DNA of 64,000 bases, from the NCBI GenBank assembly GCA_002816455.1, contig MUCR01000019.1, forward strand, positions 107 through 64,106, given 5' to 3'. A model generated the notes under the pieces. The model was not told the origin of the DNA and ran no database searches. It was given only the letters and a program-made list of their open reading frames with translations. The stretch is from SAR202 cluster bacterium Io17-Chloro-G4 (GTDB lineage: Bacteria > Chloroflexota > Dehalococcoidia > Lucifugimonadales > UBA3495). Each line of letters opens with the position of its first letter. Position 1 is the stretch's first letter. The position numbers were made by a program, and so were the translations under genes. Shown here piece by piece: positions 1,112 through 8,541 of the stretch.

Positions 1112-2395
1112 CTACGAGTTTGCCCAACCGAAGATCTGCTTTAGCCACCTCCTGCCGGTGATCCCCAAGAGCAGAAGCCCGCCTAACACCGCCACGACCG
1201 GAATCCACCACAACGTTGTCCCGCCATCCACCGGCGTTGCTTGGGGCTGATTGGAAGTCTGCGTGGTTGTCTCATCCCGCGGTGGCGCATCCCCTGTGAT
1301 GAACCCGAGTTCTGAGGACAAGCGTCCCGTGGCGCCGTAGTAAACCTCCGCGATGAAAATGTGATTCCCCGGCTCCAATCTTCCGCTTAGGCTAAATGTC
1401 ATCTCACCGGTCGCTCCCGGCAAAAGCAGGTTTGGGCCACCGGTGAGCCTTGCGCCCATGGTTTCTCCTCTTTGGGAACGCACCGAAGCCTGCATCCTGG
1501 GCCGTAGAGCTAAATCTCCTTCGTTAACCAGCAACATCACGAACTGCCGTTCCTCGTCCGGACCTGCTTTTACCTGTAGCTCTTTGAGGATCAATGACGG
1601 TCGGTCGGCAAAGGAGATTTCCTTGGTTACCGGCTGGTCCCCGCCAAAGGAGATGCTGGCCCTGGCCGTGTATGTTTCGCCGGCAGTCAATGCCAACCCC
1701 GGCTCGGCGGTATAGCTTAGCTGCTCTCCGGGGAGCGCTAATTCGGCCACGGGGAATGCCGGGTTTTCAGGCACCTCTCCCTGCGGCCCGATGACTTGGA
1801 CCGCTCCTTCTGTGGAAAAATGCAGATTGCCGGTGTTGGTCAACCTCAAATTGAACCCTATCAGACCGTTGGGCTCCAAAACCGGCAGAAACTCTGTAAC
1901 CTCCGCCAATCGAGTCAACGGCTGCCGACCCTGAACATTTACCACCACCGGCAGGTCGGACTGGGCATCAGTCACTCCAAAGTCCTGGGTGGAGTCCACC
2001 GATTTAACCTCAAATCCTACCAGTGCGTATCGGCCACCGGAATCCAGGTCTTGGTCCGGTACCTGGGCTGTAACCTCGACGGTTATTTCTTCAAAACCCG
2101 CCATCAGGAACCTGGAAGGTTCGAGCTTTATCCATTCAGTGGCTGATAGACCAGCCTCCCCGGCCAAGTCCACCACGAAGGAATTAACTTGGACCGGATG
2201 GCGGGCTATATTGGACACGGTGATCAACTGGCTGGAAGACTCACCCGCCGCCAAGTTAATCTCAACGACGGATGGCACTACGAAAACACCCACATCGTCG
2301 GCCCGGGCCAACGGAGCAGGCTGGATGCTCAACGCCGCCCATGAAACTACCGCCAAAACCAGTAGGACTAGAAGTCTGCCGCTGAAACCGCTCAT
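1112..2395 (-). CDS. Secreted, C-terminally membrane-anchored protein with tandem Ig-like domains
   Basis: Signal peptide (LARA|D), repeated NxGN/D-type beta-sandwich motifs (LTNTGNL, LVNEGDL), T/Q/P linker, C-terminal TM helix followed by RRW. Confidence 0.7.
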   Translation of the reverse strand: MSGFSGRLLVLLVLAVVSWAALSIQPAPLARADDVGVFVVPSVVEINLAAGESSSQLITVSNIARHPVQVNSFVVDLAGEAGLSATEWIKLEPSRFLMAGFEEITVEVTAQVPDQDLDSGGRYALVGFEVKSVDSTQDFGVTDAQSDLPVVVNVQGRQPLTRLAEVTEFLPVLEPNGLIGFNLRLTNTGNLHFSTEGAVQVIGPQGEVPENPAFPVAELALPGEQLSYTAEPGLALTAGETYTARASISFGGDQPVTKEISFADRPSLILKELQVKAGPDEERQFVMLLVNEGDLALRPRMQASVRSQRGETMGARLTGGPNLLLPGATGEMTFSLSGRLEPGNHIFIAEVYYGATGRLSSELGFITGDAPPRDETTTQTSNQPQATPVDGGTTLWWIPVVAVLGGLLLLGITGRRWLKQIFGWANS

Positions 2396-2431: not shown

Positions 2432-3994
2432 TTACTCCACGATTGGCCGGGAAACTATCCATAAGCTAACGATGGTGTAGAGGACCATCAAGCCCAGCAT
2501 GGGTAGCTGGCTTTTAACCACCAAATCGCGATTGCCGAACAGCACGATGGCCCGAATGTGGGATAGGAATACGGCTATCATGTGACCGACGACTATCACG
2601 ATAATGGAGAAAAACCAGATGAACCGGGCGTTGGTTATCCCGATGTTTATTAGATAGTCCCGAGTACCGAACAGGTCCCAACCGAAGCCAAATGGGTCGG
2701 AGATCAGCGGGATGATCAGCTGTCCCTGGATTAGCAGGAAGCTCAGGAAGTGAGCAAAGTTATAGGCAAGGGCAATCGGTATCAGGGAAAAAACAAAGGC
2801 TTTAGCCAATGCGCTGGCAGTATCTTGATTGCCCGTCACCCGGCGCATAACATAAGTGAAGGTGAAATAGACTGCAGCAAAGGCCAGCGGGAAACCGATT
2901 AGGCCCATTGTGTTGGCGATTGTGACTCCATTGAGCCAATCTTTGGTCAAACTGGGAAACCAGTCAAAGAACTGACTCTGTACTTCCACCCACTCGGGGG
3001 TTGCGCCGAATCCGTCAAAAGTGACGGTGGACAACATGAGCAACACCATGGCCATAACGTCGCCGCCGATGTTGCCGGCGGTGTGCAAACCCACTGCGGG
3101 GGGCCGCAGATTGAACTGGACGTCCTCAGCGAACTCGGCACACTCGTAGCAGTCCACACATCCTTCGAATCGGTTCCCAGCTTGACCTTCTGGGTGGCAC
3201 GATTCGGATCCGCAATCCTCGCACACCTGGCTCTCCACTACCCGGACCTCCGTGATGGAGAAGCGTGCCAAGTAGCCGAACACGACAGAGAACGCCTCCC
3301 CGTGCCGCAACCACCTGTGTTTACCGAATAGAAACATTCCGACGAATGTGATGGCGCTGTAGGTCAGAGCCATGGCTGCTAATCTTCGCGGCTCGGCGCT
3401 GCCGCCAAAGGAGTTCTCCGCCCAAGCAAAAGCGAAGAAAAGGGCCACCGCAGGCCAAATGCCCAGCCTCTCTGGATAGTGCCACCCTAGCGTCAAATCG
3501 CGGTCAGGACGGATTATGTCGTAGATGCCTTCAGCCCATCCGTAAATCGCCTTCCAAGGATTGACCAGGGCCCATAGGTTGCCGAACAAGGCAATAAAAA
3601 AGCCCATGCCCACCCACCAGATGACCCAAATGAAGGTGGGAGCGAGGTTGTCCGATGGCGGAGTCTCGCCGAACACCCCCACTGCCACAATCAAGCCTAA
3701 GCCAAATACCGCAAACACCTTTATGGGCAAAAGCACCGGCCCGGCCAGAACCAAGCGAAGCACGGTGTTTTGGATCAGGTTTATGCGGGGATACGCAAAC
3801 CGCCGGAATTCACCCTCTACCGCTACGCCTATAAGGACAAAGGAGAGGACCACAGCTGCGCCGCCGCCCACCACGAAGAACGTGAGGGGCACTGGCAGGT
3901 CGTATCGCTCGCCAAAACCATGAGCATAGGCCGTCTGGGCCAGCAAAGCGGTAACGATGGCCAGCAACACAAAGAGAAATTTTGGTCGAAGCAT
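2432..3994 (-). CDS. Polytopic membrane protein of the FedB ('fenitrothion hydrolase')-like family, related to polyferredoxin membrane domains, with a Cys-rich loop
   Basis: AHGFGERYDLPVP start, NLAPTFIWVIWW..GNLWALVNPW, SLIPIALAYNFAH, SDPFGFGWDLFG, SQLPMLGLMVLYT; loop CEDC-x4-C...CVDCYEC. Start uncertain (3994, 4033 or 4069). Confidence 0.75.
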   Translation of the reverse strand: MLRPKFLFVLLAIVTALLAQTAYAHGFGERYDLPVPLTFFVVGGGAAVVLSFVLIGVAVEGEFRRFAYPRINLIQNTVLRLVLAGPVLLPIKVFAVFGLGLIVAVGVFGETPPSDNLAPTFIWVIWWVGMGFFIALFGNLWALVNPWKAIYGWAEGIYDIIRPDRDLTLGWHYPERLGIWPAVALFFAFAWAENSFGGSAEPRRLAAMALTYSAITFVGMFLFGKHRWLRHGEAFSVVFGYLARFSITEVRVVESQVCEDCGSESCHPEGQAGNRFEGCVDCYECAEFAEDVQFNLRPPAVGLHTAGNIGGDVMAMVLLMLSTVTFDGFGATPEWVEVQSQFFDWFPSLTKDWLNGVTIANTMGLIGFPLAFAAVYFTFTYVMRRVTGNQDTASALAKAFVFSLIPIALAYNFAHFLSFLLIQGQLIIPLISDPFGFGWDLFGTRDYLINIGITNARFIWFFSIIVIVVGHMIAVFLSHIRAIVLFGNRDLVVKSQLPMLGLMVLYTIVSLWIVSRPIVE

Positions 3995-4102
3995 AAGGTT
4001 ACCTTTGGCGAATCTGGCGGCGGCCCGTTTCATGCTAATCCAAACATGCTGGAGGCCATCGCCGTTCAAGCCTATTTGCGTATTCGTCGGGGTTAAGGCT
4101 GG

Positions 4103-4519
4103 TTACCGAGGCCTCACCTCCAATATTCCTATCTCCAATTCCCCTTCTTCATTTTCACCGCCTTCGTCGTGCTCTTCTTCGCCTTCGTGTTCTTCCTCAG
4201 CAGCGTGGAAGGTGATCTTGAATCTGCCGGTGATATCCGCGAGGACGAAGAAATCCGTGGGCACGCCTGCTTCCACGTCCATTTCTACATCGTAGCCGTG
4301 AAGATGGAATTCCCCGGCCTCCTCCGTCTCTATCATTAGCGTAACCATGTCGCCTTGTTTCACCTGAATCGTCCCTGGGGTCAGGCTTCCGCCTTCCAAC
4401 TTTATGGGAATATCCAGTTCCTCCGGTTCGCCGCCGCCGCAAGCGGCGATCAACATGAGTAAAATTCCCCCAAGAATGAGTAAAATTATCGGGTTTTTAA
4501 AGCAAATTGGTGTCTTCAT
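4103..4519 (-). CDS. Cupredoxin-fold lipoprotein with an acidic/His loop
   Basis: Lipobox IAAC, PGTIQVKQGDMVTL, EFHLHGY, GRFKITFH, EEEHEGEEEHDE; AGGAG SD upstream. Confidence 0.8.
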   Translation of the reverse strand: MKTPICFKNPIILLILGGILLMLIAACGGGEPEELDIPIKLEGGSLTPGTIQVKQGDMVTLMIETEEAGEFHLHGYDVEMDVEAGVPTDFFVLADITGRFKITFHAAEEEHEGEEEHDEGGENEEGELEIGILEVRPR

Positions 4520-4520
4520 G

Positions 4521-4625
4521 TCTAGCTCCTTTCATGATTGGCAGGCAGCAACCCAAACGAACGCCCAGTTTCCGAACAACCAGGCATGCCGGGCCAACAG
4601 GTATTGGTAGAGGAGAGGAGCTAGA
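4521..4625 (-). promoter_or_regulatory. Anti-Shine-Dalgarno / SD duplex linking the leader ORF stop to the cupredoxin RBS
   Basis: + strand tctagctcct (4521-4530) is the exact reverse complement of aggagctaga (4616-4625). On the mRNA, UCUAGCUCCU (containing the leader stop UAG) pairs with AGGAGCUAGA, 1 nt before the cupredoxin AUG. Confidence 0.7.
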
Positions 4626-5040
4626 GTTGCGGGGGCTTCTCGAGAGGTGGGGTTTTCCAGCTATCGGGGACCTGGTTTCCACCGATGAAAGCGAACTCGT
4701 GGATCCCCGAGGAGGGTTCCGGGAAAGCCCATGAGGCAGGGTCAATGGTCAGCGCCATTGGGGAATAACTTTGCCCCAAGCTTTCATCTGGCGTTAAATA
4801 TAAGACTCCGTCGGTGCCTGAGAACGACCTTCTCTGCGTATCCTGCACGACTGCATGGGCAAGCATATCGTCGTGGATGTGAACCGCCTCGAAAGGATGC
4901 TCGTGTTCGAGATGGAATGATCCAACAAACGCATGGGCATGATGGGGTAATCTCTCGGCGAAGTGGTGGTCTAGGACTGGCCCCAAGGCGGAAAACATCA
5001 GAAGGGCAAGTGACACTATCACCAAGAAACGGGCCGCCAT
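4621..5040 (-). CDS. His-rich membrane-targeted small protein with a C-terminal Pro-rich motif; candidate metal-sensing leader/arrest peptide (DUF2946-like architecture)
   Basis: N-terminal hydrophobic helix FLVIVSLALLMFSALG, DHHFAERLPHHAH..HLEHEHPFEAVHIH, C-terminus KTPPLEKPPQL*; alternative start 5121. Confidence 0.65.
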   Translation of the reverse strand: MAARFLVIVSLALLMFSALGPVLDHHFAERLPHHAHAFVGSFHLEHEHPFEAVHIHDDMLAHAVVQDTQRRSFSGTDGVLYLTPDESLGQSYSPMALTIDPASWAFPEPSSGIHEFAFIGGNQVPDSWKTPPLEKPPQL

Positions 5041-5195
5041 ACGAGGTCCGGCCTGAGAAGCAGTATCCTCTAGACTGGCGTTTTTTTCAGGACCACGAAA
5101 TCCGCCGATTGTTTCCATCACTCCATTTTACTCCGGTGCTTGTGGTGACCAATAGGTCGGGTTGAGTGAGGTATCGGTGCTTGAGCGCCCTTTTA

Positions 5196-5768
5196 TCAGC
5201 CTGCCTCGGGCTTCCCTTTGCCTGGGAACTTTCCCCAAACAAATATGCCCACAGCCAGCGTAACGACTACAACGGCCGCTATCAAAACAATTTTGAGTCC
5301 GTCGCCGCCTTCTTTAACTTCCACTGGCACTATGGCGGTGGTTTGCCCCAAGTCCGATGAAACGGCCAAGAGAATTCGCCAACTCCCCACAATATCGAAG
5401 GGGAGGTCGGTTTCAAAAAAGCTGGGCGTGTAGCTGTTCGGCGCTGAAATATTCTCGAATGGCGTCGAGCCTTCGGGGCCGGTCGCGGACACATCTACGG
5501 TAGCCGTGGTCAATATCTCGCCGGTGTCCAATGCGCGCAATAGTACGCTAATGTGGGTATTGCCCACCACCGCCTGTCCAGGCAACAGACTGATATCGAT
5601 AATGTATGGTCCGGATTCTTGGGAAGAGATTAGCTTGGCTCGTCCGTTGGCCTGGATTGTGCTGGGGAACAAGCCCACGAGGACTAAGAAAATAGCGAGA
5701 GCCGACGAGAGCGCCGTTATGCTTAGGTCGGAGTTATGCTTAGGAAATTTTGAGGGCCAAGTCCGCAT
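5196..5768 (-). CDS. YtkA/FixH-like Ig-fold exported protein with a C-terminal TM anchor
   Basis: Signal-like segment, GPYIIDISLLPGQAVVGNTHI, FDIVGSWRILL, C-terminal TM plus basic tail; start uncertain (ORF extends to 5894). Confidence 0.6.
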   Translation of the reverse strand: MRTWPSKFPKHNSDLSITALSSALAIFLVLVGLFPSTIQANGRAKLISSQESGPYIIDISLLPGQAVVGNTHISVLLRALDTGEILTTATVDVSATGPEGSTPFENISAPNSYTPSFFETDLPFDIVGSWRILLAVSSDLGQTTAIVPVEVKEGGDGLKIVLIAAVVVVTLAVGIFVWGKFPGKGKPEAG

Positions 5769-5996
5769 TAATAATAAATGGTAACACCGGTTTTTTGCGA
5801 GCGGCAACCGGAAGTCTCGAATTATGCATCCTTTCGGCTCTGAACCCGGATTCGTGTATTCAGAAAAATATCCGTGCCTTGCCATAGCTATCATTTAAAG
5901 ATATCTATGGGTACCGGTAATGTATGTTCTTGACTCCCAGTTAGGTGCGGCTTACACTGAAATCGTTAATAACCCCAATATGGATGTAAGGCCTGC

Positions 5997-7958: not shown

Positions 7959-8300
7959 TCAAAATTCCAACCCCAGGCTTCGATGGATAGCGACATCTAC
8001 TTCCGCTAGCTTTGGGTCCCGTAGCTCACCAACCAGCCGCCCAAGCCGAGATTGATCGATAGTCTGAATATGTTCGCACTTGACTATGCTAGCCCTCGGT
8101 AAGCCGCTTTCTTGAGACTCGATTAAAACCTGGAACGGATAGTTGCTTCCCTCGCTTGTGGAAATCGCAGCGATTATAGTAGTAGGGCTGAATTGATTTC
8201 CTATGTCGTTTTGAATGATTAGCGCAGGCCGCGTTCCCGCCTGCTCAGACCCACGCCCACCGGACCAATCCACGTAGTAAATCTCTCCCCGCTTAACCAT
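7959..8300 (-). CDS. mazF: Type II toxin, PemK/MazF family endoribonuclease
   Basis: MVKRGEIYYVD..GSEQAGTRPALIIQNDIGN..SGLPRASIVKCEHIQTID; ATG at 8300 overlaps the antitoxin 3' end by 8 nt. Confidence 0.92.
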   Translation of the reverse strand: MVKRGEIYYVDWSGGRGSEQAGTRPALIIQNDIGNQFSPTTIIAAISTSEGSNYPFQVLIESQESGLPRASIVKCEHIQTIDQSRLGRLVGELRDPKLAEVDVAIHRSLGLEF

Positions 8301-8541
8301 CCCGCAGGACCACATCGCCGGTGAGCCTCGTGGCCTCCTCAGCCTCACGCAAGTTTTCTTCTCCCCACTCCCGGTACCCTTGGGCCATCAGTTCCTCAGT
8401 ATTGGCCTTGCTTTCTTTCCTGAGCAAATCGGCGATGACGCCGCTTCTGGTCGTTGACCATTCTTTGGCGAGGCGGTCAGTCACATCAAGGAGCGAGGAC
8501 GGAAGGCTAATTGTAATTTTGCTTGATTTCTTTTCTTTCAT
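8293..8541 (-). CDS. Ribbon-helix-helix antitoxin (CopG/NdoAI-like)
   Basis: KITISLPSSLL..TRSGVIADLL..ELMAQGYREW; directly upstream of mazF. Confidence 0.88.
   Translation of the reverse strand: MKEKKSSKITISLPSSLLDVTDRLAKEWSTTRSGVIADLLRKESKANTEELMAQGYREWGEENLREAEEATRLTGDVVLRDG

Follow-up and report, generated by a model that had tools for sequence, protein, structure and literature searches.

A conserved anti-Shine-Dalgarno helix at the stop codon of a His-rich membrane protein gene in Dehalococcoidia: a candidate metal-responsive switch

On the minus strand of a 64,000 nt stretch of DNA (the window) from SAR202 cluster bacterium Io17-Chloro-G4 (GCA_002816455.1, contig MUCR01000019.1, positions 107-64,106 of the forward strand), a small open reading frame (ORF) encoding a His-rich membrane protein precedes the gene of a cupredoxin-like lipoprotein. 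The mRNA carries, starting at the stop codon of this ORF, a conserved anti-Shine-Dalgarno (anti-SD) element that is predicted to form a helix with the downstream gene's Shine-Dalgarno (SD) sequence. Given this helix and its position, translation of the downstream gene would therefore depend on translation of the end of the ORF. Our preferred reading, which we place a little short of an even chance, is a regulated switch in which translation of the ORF end opens the ribosome-binding site, a pause at a C-terminal diprolyl motif prolongs the open state and metal on a His cluster tunes it. A preliminary description of the locus, made from its sequence, had proposed such a metal-sensing arrest switch; this interpretation is partly supported, as each of its comparative predictions that could be tested held.

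The anti-Shine-Dalgarno element

It had been stated in the preliminary description that mRNA UCUAGCUCCU (4625-4616) is perfectly complementary to AGGAGCUAGA (4530-4521). This pairing was confirmed, and the arms extend to 13 nt at 92% (4613-4625 / 4521-4533). Folding of 4500-4660 (minus strand), which had been suggested as a check, placed the pairing in both the minimum free energy and the centroid structure. The pairing is significant because of its position, stop codon against SD sequence, and because of its conservation in homologous loci.

CTCC starting at +1 to +3 past the stop codon was found in 50/86 genome loci and 12/33 metagenome loci (62/119 distinct loci), compared with a background of 33 in 2397 long open frames of the own genome (1.4%). 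The element usually takes the form (TAG)CTCCTTT and is a copy of the 3' tail of the 16S rRNA of the own genome, which ends ...CACCUCCUUU, while the downstream SD sequence is typically GAAAGGAG[C/U]. Among 47 representatives sharing less than about 60% identity, non-coding conservation was limited to +1 to +8 (0.5-1.3 bits) and amounted to about 0.1 bit past +8. Readthrough or frameshifting at the stop codon was set aside because nothing is conserved past +8. An antisense ORF using the reverse-strand AAGGAG as SD sequence was rejected as well, since inspection of other loci by eye found no start codon at a workable distance.

The helix was measured in partition-function folds of the sequence from the stop codon to the next start codon, as the number of expected pairs between the post-stop segment (12 nt) and the SD segment. 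For controls, 150 junctions were sampled from the 293 junctions of the own genome that have a GGAG-type SD sequence. Loci with CTCC showed a median of 9.56 expected pairs and at least 7 pairs in 41/49 cases, versus a median of 0.22 and at least 7 pairs in 6/150 control junctions. Of the 10.4 pairs expected for the SD segment, about 9.6 have their partner in the post-stop segment. As a separate observation, the six control junctions with at least 7 pairs suggest that stop-adjacent SD masking may operate at other operons of the own genome; the junction of the family itself may be one of them.

Recurrence of the anti-SD/SD pairing in relatives, likewise proposed as a check in the preliminary description, was observed over spacers of 48-309 nt in the loci with a predicted stem and with some two-sided changes; among relatives, neither the length nor the sequence of the spacer is conserved. 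A register table was compiled for 48 loci: the CTCC/GGAG core was paired in all 48, and the third base of the stop codon paired with the base after GGAG in 39. The seventh anti-SD position (offset +6 from the first C) was T-A in 26 loci, C-G in 8, T-G in 6 and unpaired in 8. The C-G cases, which are few and not all independent, show direct mRNA-mRNA complementarity beyond the shared resemblance to 16S rRNA. In locus L002, whose protein is 52% identical, the 10-bp helix of the window is kept via one U.G pair, and the pattern of helix and CUCC holds across proteins at 25-35% identity.

A clade with short spacers (48-50 nt: L045, L051, L060, L064, L065, L076, L079, L098) was folded with RNAalifold, which gave 14 pairs. 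Past a 3-nt bulge, the last sense codon GCA and the UA of the stop codon pair with UAUGC, so that in this clade the start codon would also be masked.

The His-rich protein family and its genes

The ORF encodes the features that had been listed for it in the preliminary description: its protein starts with one hydrophobic helix near the N-terminus, contains the cluster DHHFAERLPHHAHAFVGSFHLEHEHPFEAVHIH, lacks Cys and ends in KTPPLEKPPQL. Searches with the protein gave no match in Pfam (E<=1) or NCBIfam, and sequence and profile searches of the PDB returned nothing meaningful. Homologs were found in 38 of 61 related genomes, and a species-level pattern scan (one genome per prokaryotic species) yielded 112 relatives; of the best 80 of these 112, 79 bear the title Dehalococcoidia, Chloroflexota or Chloroflexi, the remaining one being an 'uncultured bacterium'. 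When 1.84 billion cluster representatives were searched with a profile, 538 proteins were retrieved at E<=1e-3, 245 of them at E<=1e-10, and a 90%-identity collection contains 451 family proteins, which are named only 'hypothetical protein' and none of which has a precomputed Pfam domain. The ORF belongs to a real, unnamed family that is almost confined to Dehalococcoidia. No paper describing this family was found in the literature on arrest peptides, copper stalling, DUF2946 and Dehalococcoidia, the supplementary similarity-network tables of Ozturk 2023 being outside this search.

Alignments of 19 and 111 sequences revealed three conserved modules: the helix with the His region, a mid motif (IVYLTxxDGxG in the 19-sequence alignment) and the C-terminus. 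The consensus adjacent to the helix is GPxLDHHFAERxPxHxHxYLG...HxHxYE..HxH, with D24, H25, H26, H34, H36, H46 and H48 invariant in both alignments. This invariant cluster, together with a median of 11 His and 0 Cys in 151 family proteins, bears out the description of a His-based, Cys-free metal-type motif. Over the 20 residues preceding DHH the median Kyte-Doolittle value is 1.73 (111 members), and the net charge changes from +2 ahead of the helix to -1 behind it. A second hydrophobic segment is absent from 96/111 members, and no AXA-type cleavage site was noticed by eye in the 19-sequence alignment. By the positive-inside rule, the protein is predicted to be an N-in/C-out anchor. The distance from the His cluster to PP has a median of 73 residues (111 sequences), and therefore the cluster is predicted to be already outside the membrane once the ribosome reaches the PP codons, if general figures for the lengths of tunnel and translocon apply.

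At the C-terminus the family consensus is PPx[KR]PPR[A/V/S]-stop. Conservation of the C-terminal PP, a further check that had been proposed, was evident: P136 and P137 are invariant in the 19 aligned homologs, and PP-x-x-stop is present in 63/86 genome loci, 21/33 metagenome loci and, among the matches listed, 103/150 representatives. Among the matches listed, the residue preceding PP is K in 38, R in 32 and P in 13 of the 103 members with PP-x-x-stop, position -2 from PP is K in 37, T in 13, D in 9 and R in 9, and PP is followed by R in 76, then A, V or S. The R-A-P-P/G core of the ApdA/ApdP/CruR type was not found, position -1 being mostly K, R or P and position -2 most often K, in line with the non-RAPP motif claimed earlier. 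In the 47 representatives, positions 1 and 2 of the Pro codons carry 2.0 bits and third positions 0.17-0.28 bits; as the Pro codons vary synonymously, selection on the diprolyl acts at the peptide level.

The first Pro codon of PP also showed a bias of its own, being CCT (CCU) in 24/47 representatives, compared with 16% of 1398 other Pro codons. A CCU at this place yields a second CCUCC inside the coding end in half of the loci, and a second anti-SD, a slow codon or phylogeny are candidate causes. In the window, the diprolyl codons are CCC-CCG (first Pro codon 4633-4635), not CCU.

A tree of 85 proteins was calculated with the last eight residues left out. One group (23 rows) has no anti-SD and carries PP 3-18 residues from the stop codon in all members but L086 and L095, and the other group (62 rows) has PP-x-x-stop in 61 and CTCC in 49. 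On this tree CTCC needs 9 changes versus 27.5 with shuffled labels (0/500 as low), with branches of 0.3-1 change per site. So few changes over such long branches argue for maintenance of CTCC by selection.

A sister clade (L009, L036, L039-L042, L044, L052) ends in HxPP[R/L]Lxx-stop, mostly with TGA, and has no anti-SD. Between the stop codon and about +60 it has the conserved bases GCCATCTA-ACAGGC and, resembling an intrinsic terminator, a G+C-rich hairpin that leads into a T-rich stretch, and the next gene is without a visible SD sequence. This clade may have a different, transcriptional output for the same kind of sensor.

Downstream genes with strong SD sequences were of three kinds, encoding cupredoxin-like lipoproteins, secreted proteins whose mature N-terminus is predicted to be His, and SCO1/SenC. 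A cupredoxin-like lipoprotein is encoded downstream in the window and in L002, L004, L013, L016 and L019. The one in the window matches Pfam PF13473 at E = 0.004, below the cut-off. A profile of 5 orthologs, in which H72, H74 and H105 are invariant, gave Cu nitrite reductase and nitrosocyanin at 1.5e-4, then multicopper oxidases/laccases and CuA domains (PDB). SCO1/SenC is encoded downstream in L003 (8.4e-40). The commonest of the putatively regulated genes encodes the N-terminal-His protein, of which 38 were found by regular expression among 75 loci (...ALA|HEGRxVGxYxFxVGW..EPAYEG). These proteins are C-terminally anchored (e.g. L022:4537-5634, L027:4527-5261, L028:4528-6456), have acidic/His-rich inserts that vary greatly in length, and some contain a cupredoxin-like insert. 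They gave no match in Pfam or the PDB and may constitute a new copper-binding family. Where the anti-SD is absent, the next gene is mostly a YtkA-like 'ANG' gene with a weak SD sequence or none. When 43 same-strand neighbour ORFs from 17 loci were surveyed with Pfam, only housekeeping families came up (RecG-type helicase, D-Glu cyclase, glyoxalase), and other metal genes were absent. The wider neighbourhood is thus of the housekeeping kind, and copper is the most likely metal as judged from the immediately downstream gene types only.

The minus strand of the window holds five co-directional genes, from 5894 down to 1112 (Table 1). In its longest form the His-rich ORF has a GGAG 9 nt upstream of its start codon, and the N-terminal extension of this form is partly conserved in L002; the preliminary description had used the shorter, 139-aa form. 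A near-identical gene call (P0001, 165 aa) is 99% identical to the ORF. The 'ANG...GPY' gene type lies upstream of the His-rich ORF in the window and downstream of the family ORF at other loci, and the protein of this type in L083 matches YtkA-like PF13115 at E = 3.5e-5, just under the cut-off. The 545-aa membrane protein has a predicted N-terminal His after its signal (AYA|HGFGERYDLP) and a Cys-rich loop, CEDCGSESCHPEG...CVDCYEC, and gave no family match in Pfam or NCBIfam. A search of 3900-5300 against Rfam gave no match at E<=1. Elsewhere in the window, the ORF list contains two small overlapping ORFs of 82 aa and 129 aa at 7959-8541 (-), the second of which begins ...VKRGEIYYVDW...GSEQAGTRPALIIQND; we take it to resemble a MazF/PemK-type toxin after a small antitoxin-like ORF.

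Table 1. Genes and sequence elements around the His-rich ORF (coordinates in the window)
Feature	Coordinates	Strand	Description
Upstream gene	5196..5894	-	232 aa, C-terminal membrane helix, 'ANG...GPY' type
His-rich family ORF, stop included	4621..5121	-	GTG 5121 (166 aa) or ATG 5040 (139 aa) to TAG 4623-4621
Hydrophobic helix	4984..5028	-	about residues 5-19 of the 139-aa form; predicted N-in/C-out signal anchor
His cluster	4873..4971	-	D24-H25-H26 ... H34-x-H36 ... H46-x-H48 ... H54-x-H56; predicted extracytoplasmic; no Cys
C-terminal motif PPLEKPPQL	4624..4650	-	diprolyl codons 4630-4635
Anti-SD arm	4613..4625	-	last 2 nt of final codon, stop UAG and CUCCUCUC; core CUCCU 4616-4620
Spacer inside long-range helix	4534..4612	-	local hairpins, including a weak terminator-like one at 4562-4578
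SD arm GAAAGGAGCUAGA of downstream gene	4521..4533	-	ends 1 nt before AUG 4519-4517
Cupredoxin-like lipoprotein gene	4103..4519	-	138 aa, lipobox AAC; start 101 nt past ORF stop
Next gene	2432..4069	-	545-aa polytopic membrane protein, Cys-rich loop
Fifth gene	1112..2395	-	427-aa protein

The proposed switch and its alternatives

In the switch proposed here, the exported, juxtamembrane His cluster of the single-pass membrane protein would be a metal-binding site. By default the next gene would be translationally closed, as (UAG)CUCCUUU, beginning with the stop codon, would pair across the spacer with its SD sequence. A ribosome on the last codons of the ORF would unwind this helix and expose the downstream ribosome-binding site. 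As PP lies two codons before the stop codon, a paused ribosome with Pro-Pro in the P site would hold the stop codon and CUCC in its mRNA channel and thereby prolong the open state. By analogy with CutF-CutO, which is compared below, the length of the pause would depend on the fate of the nascent chain's His cluster, by then exported; a bound metal, most likely copper, would alter folding or pulling force and tune the pause. In this way, metal on the extracytoplasmic side would control how much is made of secreted copper-handling proteins, namely a cupredoxin-like lipoprotein, an N-terminal-His protein or SCO1. The pause at PP, metal binding, and both the direction of regulation and its ligand are inferred, the pause and its tuning by metal from the analogy with CutF and CruR.

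On the 3' side of the first base in its P site, a ribosome protects about 12-15 nt of mRNA, and it unwinds helices where the mRNA enters. When the P site is occupied by the second Pro codon, Arg-Ala-stop lies at +3 to +11 and CUCC at +12 to +15; once the stop codon has reached the A site, the ribosome encloses the whole CUCCUUUC. In both positions the 5' arm cannot pair and the downstream SD sequence is free.

Several observations call for caution or weigh against a regulated switch. Within the window alone the pairing is not beyond chance, with 17 perfect 10-nt inverted repeats 20-150 nt apart compared with 9.3 (range 2-18) in 20 block shuffles, and the fold energy of the region is ordinary versus shuffles (z = 0.57). 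Compensatory pairs numbered 0 in the 8-sequence RNAalifold of the short-spacer clade, and both arms are bound by the 16S/SD rule, so that much of the 'conserved pairing' cannot covary. When PP-x-x-stop and CTCC were cross-tabulated, 49 genome loci had both, 14 PP-x-x-stop only, 1 CTCC only and 22 neither (12, 9, 0 and 12 in the metagenome loci), but PP-x-x-stop changes only about 3 times on the tree and an independent-pairs test of the association is without power; the cross-tables are therefore not evidence of independent co-evolution, the association being confounded by phylogeny. PP is kept without the anti-SD in 14/63 genome loci and 9/21 metagenome loci with PP-x-x-stop, and it is kept throughout the second clade, which lacks the anti-SD, at 4-12 residues from the stop codon. 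PP therefore has a role that is independent of the helix. His clusters also bind Ni, Co and Zn. Conservation spans the whole protein including the mid motif, which would suit a stable protein with a function of its own better than a disposable sensor, and at 139-166 aa the ORF encodes a real protein, not a short leader. Any ribosome that terminates would open a helix lying right against the stop codon, whether or not a regulated pause occurs. Among the matches listed, K or R precedes PP in 70/103 members, and in E. coli assays [KR]PP does not stall strongly, so that any intrinsic pause may be weak; RPP was reported to be without stalling in the E. coli XPP assay, as cited in Starosta 2014.

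The inverted repeats and the ordinary fold energy would suit a mere chance complementarity between an ordinary stop context and an ordinary SD sequence, beside an unremarkable hypothetical protein. We consider this hardly credible, and it is refuted by the recurrence of stop-adjacent CUCC in more than half of the homologous loci against the low genomic background, by the excess of the helix over control junctions across very divergent proteins, and by the conservation confined to +1 to +8. Control at the level of transcription is improbable too, albeit less so. As in CruR of Bordetella pertussis, which provides the precedent, a ribosome paused at PP would shield the mRNA from Rho or block a terminator in the spacer, and the SD pairing would be secondary. 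The spacer of the window does contain a weak terminator-like hairpin at 4562-4578 (-), with 7 pairs, 3 of them G-C, followed by UUCGUUUGGG, and the sister clade ending in HxPPxLxx-stop has its conserved hairpin and U-run just past the stop codon in place of the anti-SD. However, the hairpin at 4562-4578 is not conserved in short-spacer relatives, some spacers of 48-50 nt are fully taken by the SD helix, and neither sequence nor length of the spacer is maintained. Moreover, the conserved non-coding bases are exactly those of the anti-SD, and terminator-like sites in the region number 5 versus 7.1 in shuffles, which is below expectation.

The main rival is constitutive translational coupling, in which the ORF would encode a stable copper-handling membrane protein, such as a chaperone or partner, the helix would only couple the two genes, PP would be a structural or interaction feature and no metal-regulated pause would occur. 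Conservation of the whole protein, retention of PP where the anti-SD is lacking, the lack of strong stalling by [KR]PP in E. coli and a helix that begins at the stop codon, so that every terminating ribosome opens it, all speak for this explanation, and so does the frequent arrangement of family ORF and downstream gene as a two-gene unit amid unrelated housekeeping genes. It is a real contender, although we doubt that it is the full explanation, as the parts of the protein that are conserved best are the C-terminal eight residues and the His cluster, and in the helix-bearing clade the protein ends within two residues of PP in 61/62 tree rows. Downstream genes of three unrelated types also share this upstream ORF and helix, as suits a regulator more than a dedicated partner, and the architecture parallels CutF and CruR point by point. 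If coupling were all, the locus would still represent a well-defined, family-wide case of long-range SD masking.

Comparison with known systems

The account of CutF and CruR given in the preliminary description is accurate when set against the published passages on these proteins. According to those passages, CutF of Rhodobacter capsulatus combines a signal sequence with a Cu motif and a C-terminal PPP, and the cutO SD sequence is shielded by a stem-loop (Ozturk et al. 2023 mBio PMC9973294; 2025 bioRxiv 10.1101/2025.02.05.636593), the CutF motif alone not being a strong staller (PMC9973294). CruR of Bordetella pertussis is described with a CXXC and with RAPP three residues ahead of its C-terminal end (Roy et al. 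2022 mBio PMC9426467). How a nascent chain senses extracellular metal has to date been worked out for these two DUF2946 proteins, both from Proteobacteria.

Relatedness of the His-rich family to DUF2946 was analyzed with the Pfam model PF11162, which matched 0/19 family members at E<=10 and gave no match in the own genome at E<=1. Among 301 Chloroflexota genomes it scored over the cut-off in one, with a match containing an internal stop. The model is insensitive to divergent members, as CzcI of pMOL30 itself reaches only E = 0.026. With respect to the traits of DUF2946 leaders, the family has an invariant His cluster instead of a Cys metal motif (CXXC/CxxxC), and its candidate N-terminal targeting segment is one hydrophobic helix with a positive-inside bias. 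The C-terminal proline motif matches in position, PP lying two residues from the stop codon, but differs in sequence (x-[K/R], no PPP). The family ORFs lie upstream of metal-homeostasis genes, as DUF2946 genes do (cupredoxin-like lipoprotein, SCO1/SenC, N-terminal-His proteins). Judged by Pfam model, Cys motif, RAPP or PPP, the family does not appear to be DUF2946, and a very remote homology could still exist.

CzcI-like proteins (Pfam 38.1 PF28244; CzcI of pMOL30) resemble the family in being small, N-terminally anchored and encoded upstream of metal-resistance genes. In a comparison of protein-language-model features (Atlas), the family member P0207 scored 0.96 versus two CzcI-like clusters, with 150-160 shared features, below the 170 typical of true members. 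This lead was not supported by hhalign, which gave the 111-sequence profile a probability of 0.5% versus CzcI of pMOL30, and CzcI is described as being without a C-terminal proline motif (Ozturk 2023, PMC9973294).

Like SecM-secA, MifM-yidC2 and VemP-secDF2, as these are described, the family would represent an exported or inserted nascent chain whose C-terminal arrest keeps the ribosome in place and unmasks a downstream SD sequence. Those systems respond to translocation activity by regulating Sec or YidC components, in contrast to the family, whose downstream genes encode cupredoxin-like, SCO1 or unnamed secreted proteins rather than a localisation component and in which a His cluster is the conserved sensor-like part. 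In classical coupling via long-range SD-sequestering helices, such as phage MS2 coat-replicase, ribosomes of the upstream cistron must open the helix. The present case differs from the MS2 type in that the 5' arm is a mimic of the 16S tail exactly at the stop codon, behind the conserved diprolyl C-terminus of a membrane protein of metal-binding type.

With CruR-BfrG the family shares further traits, as CruR is described as a uORF-like protein of about 145 aa that heads a copper operon, with its metal motif in the N-terminal half and a diprolyl-containing arrest motif 2-3 residues from the C-terminus. Unlike the family, CruR has RAPP and CXXC, and its output is Rho-dependent termination, which is relieved by arrest, while copper relieves the arrest. 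The family instead carries a non-RAPP motif, with an SD-sequestering helix as its conserved RNA element.

It is possible, though on balance we lean against it, that the family is a second, independently evolved family of transmembrane metal-sensing arrest peptides, which would read extracytoplasmic copper or another His-binding metal with a His cluster, with a non-RAPP diprolyl pause and unmasking of the SD sequence through a 16S-tail-mimic anti-SD, and with sister clades wired to a terminator-like hairpin. The family, unrelated and from a different phylum, has the same four-part layout of targeting helix, exported metal-type motif, C-terminal diprolyl and SD-sequestering helix, and its putative regulatory RNA element is an unusually clean one, in that the 16S tail is copied exactly at the stop codon. 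If the mechanism holds, 'transmembrane stalling' of the CutF kind would represent a convergent and modular strategy of co-translational transmembrane signalling and not a peculiarity of DUF2946 in Proteobacteria, and a His-based sensor with a non-RAPP motif would be available for comparison with RAPP and PPP. It would also offer a first handle on copper homeostasis of uncultured marine Dehalococcoidia, and a role for several hundred 'hypothetical' proteins and the unnamed N-terminal-His proteins that they precede.

The closest counterpart in layout is CutF-CutO. According to its published description, that system likewise begins with the gene of a small protein, in which an N-terminal targeting segment is combined with an exported motif of metal-binding type and a C-terminal proline motif, followed by an intergenic mRNA helix that shields the SD sequence of a downstream copper protein, and in its model a ribosome at the end of the upstream ORF melts the helix. 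Such an intergenic SD-sequestering helix is present here by prediction. The differences lie in the parts: where CutF is described with CxxxC, a cleavable Sec signal and PPP, the family has a His cluster without Cys as ligands, an N-terminal segment that looks like an uncleaved signal anchor, and the motif PPx[KR]PP-x-x-stop. Unlike in CutF-CutO, the anti-SD begins right at the stop codon, the helix bridges as much as about 300 nt, and the host belongs to a monoderm-type Chloroflexota lineage. Taken together, these comparisons suggest that the system would work like CutF-CutO in its layout, with its function proposed by analogy.

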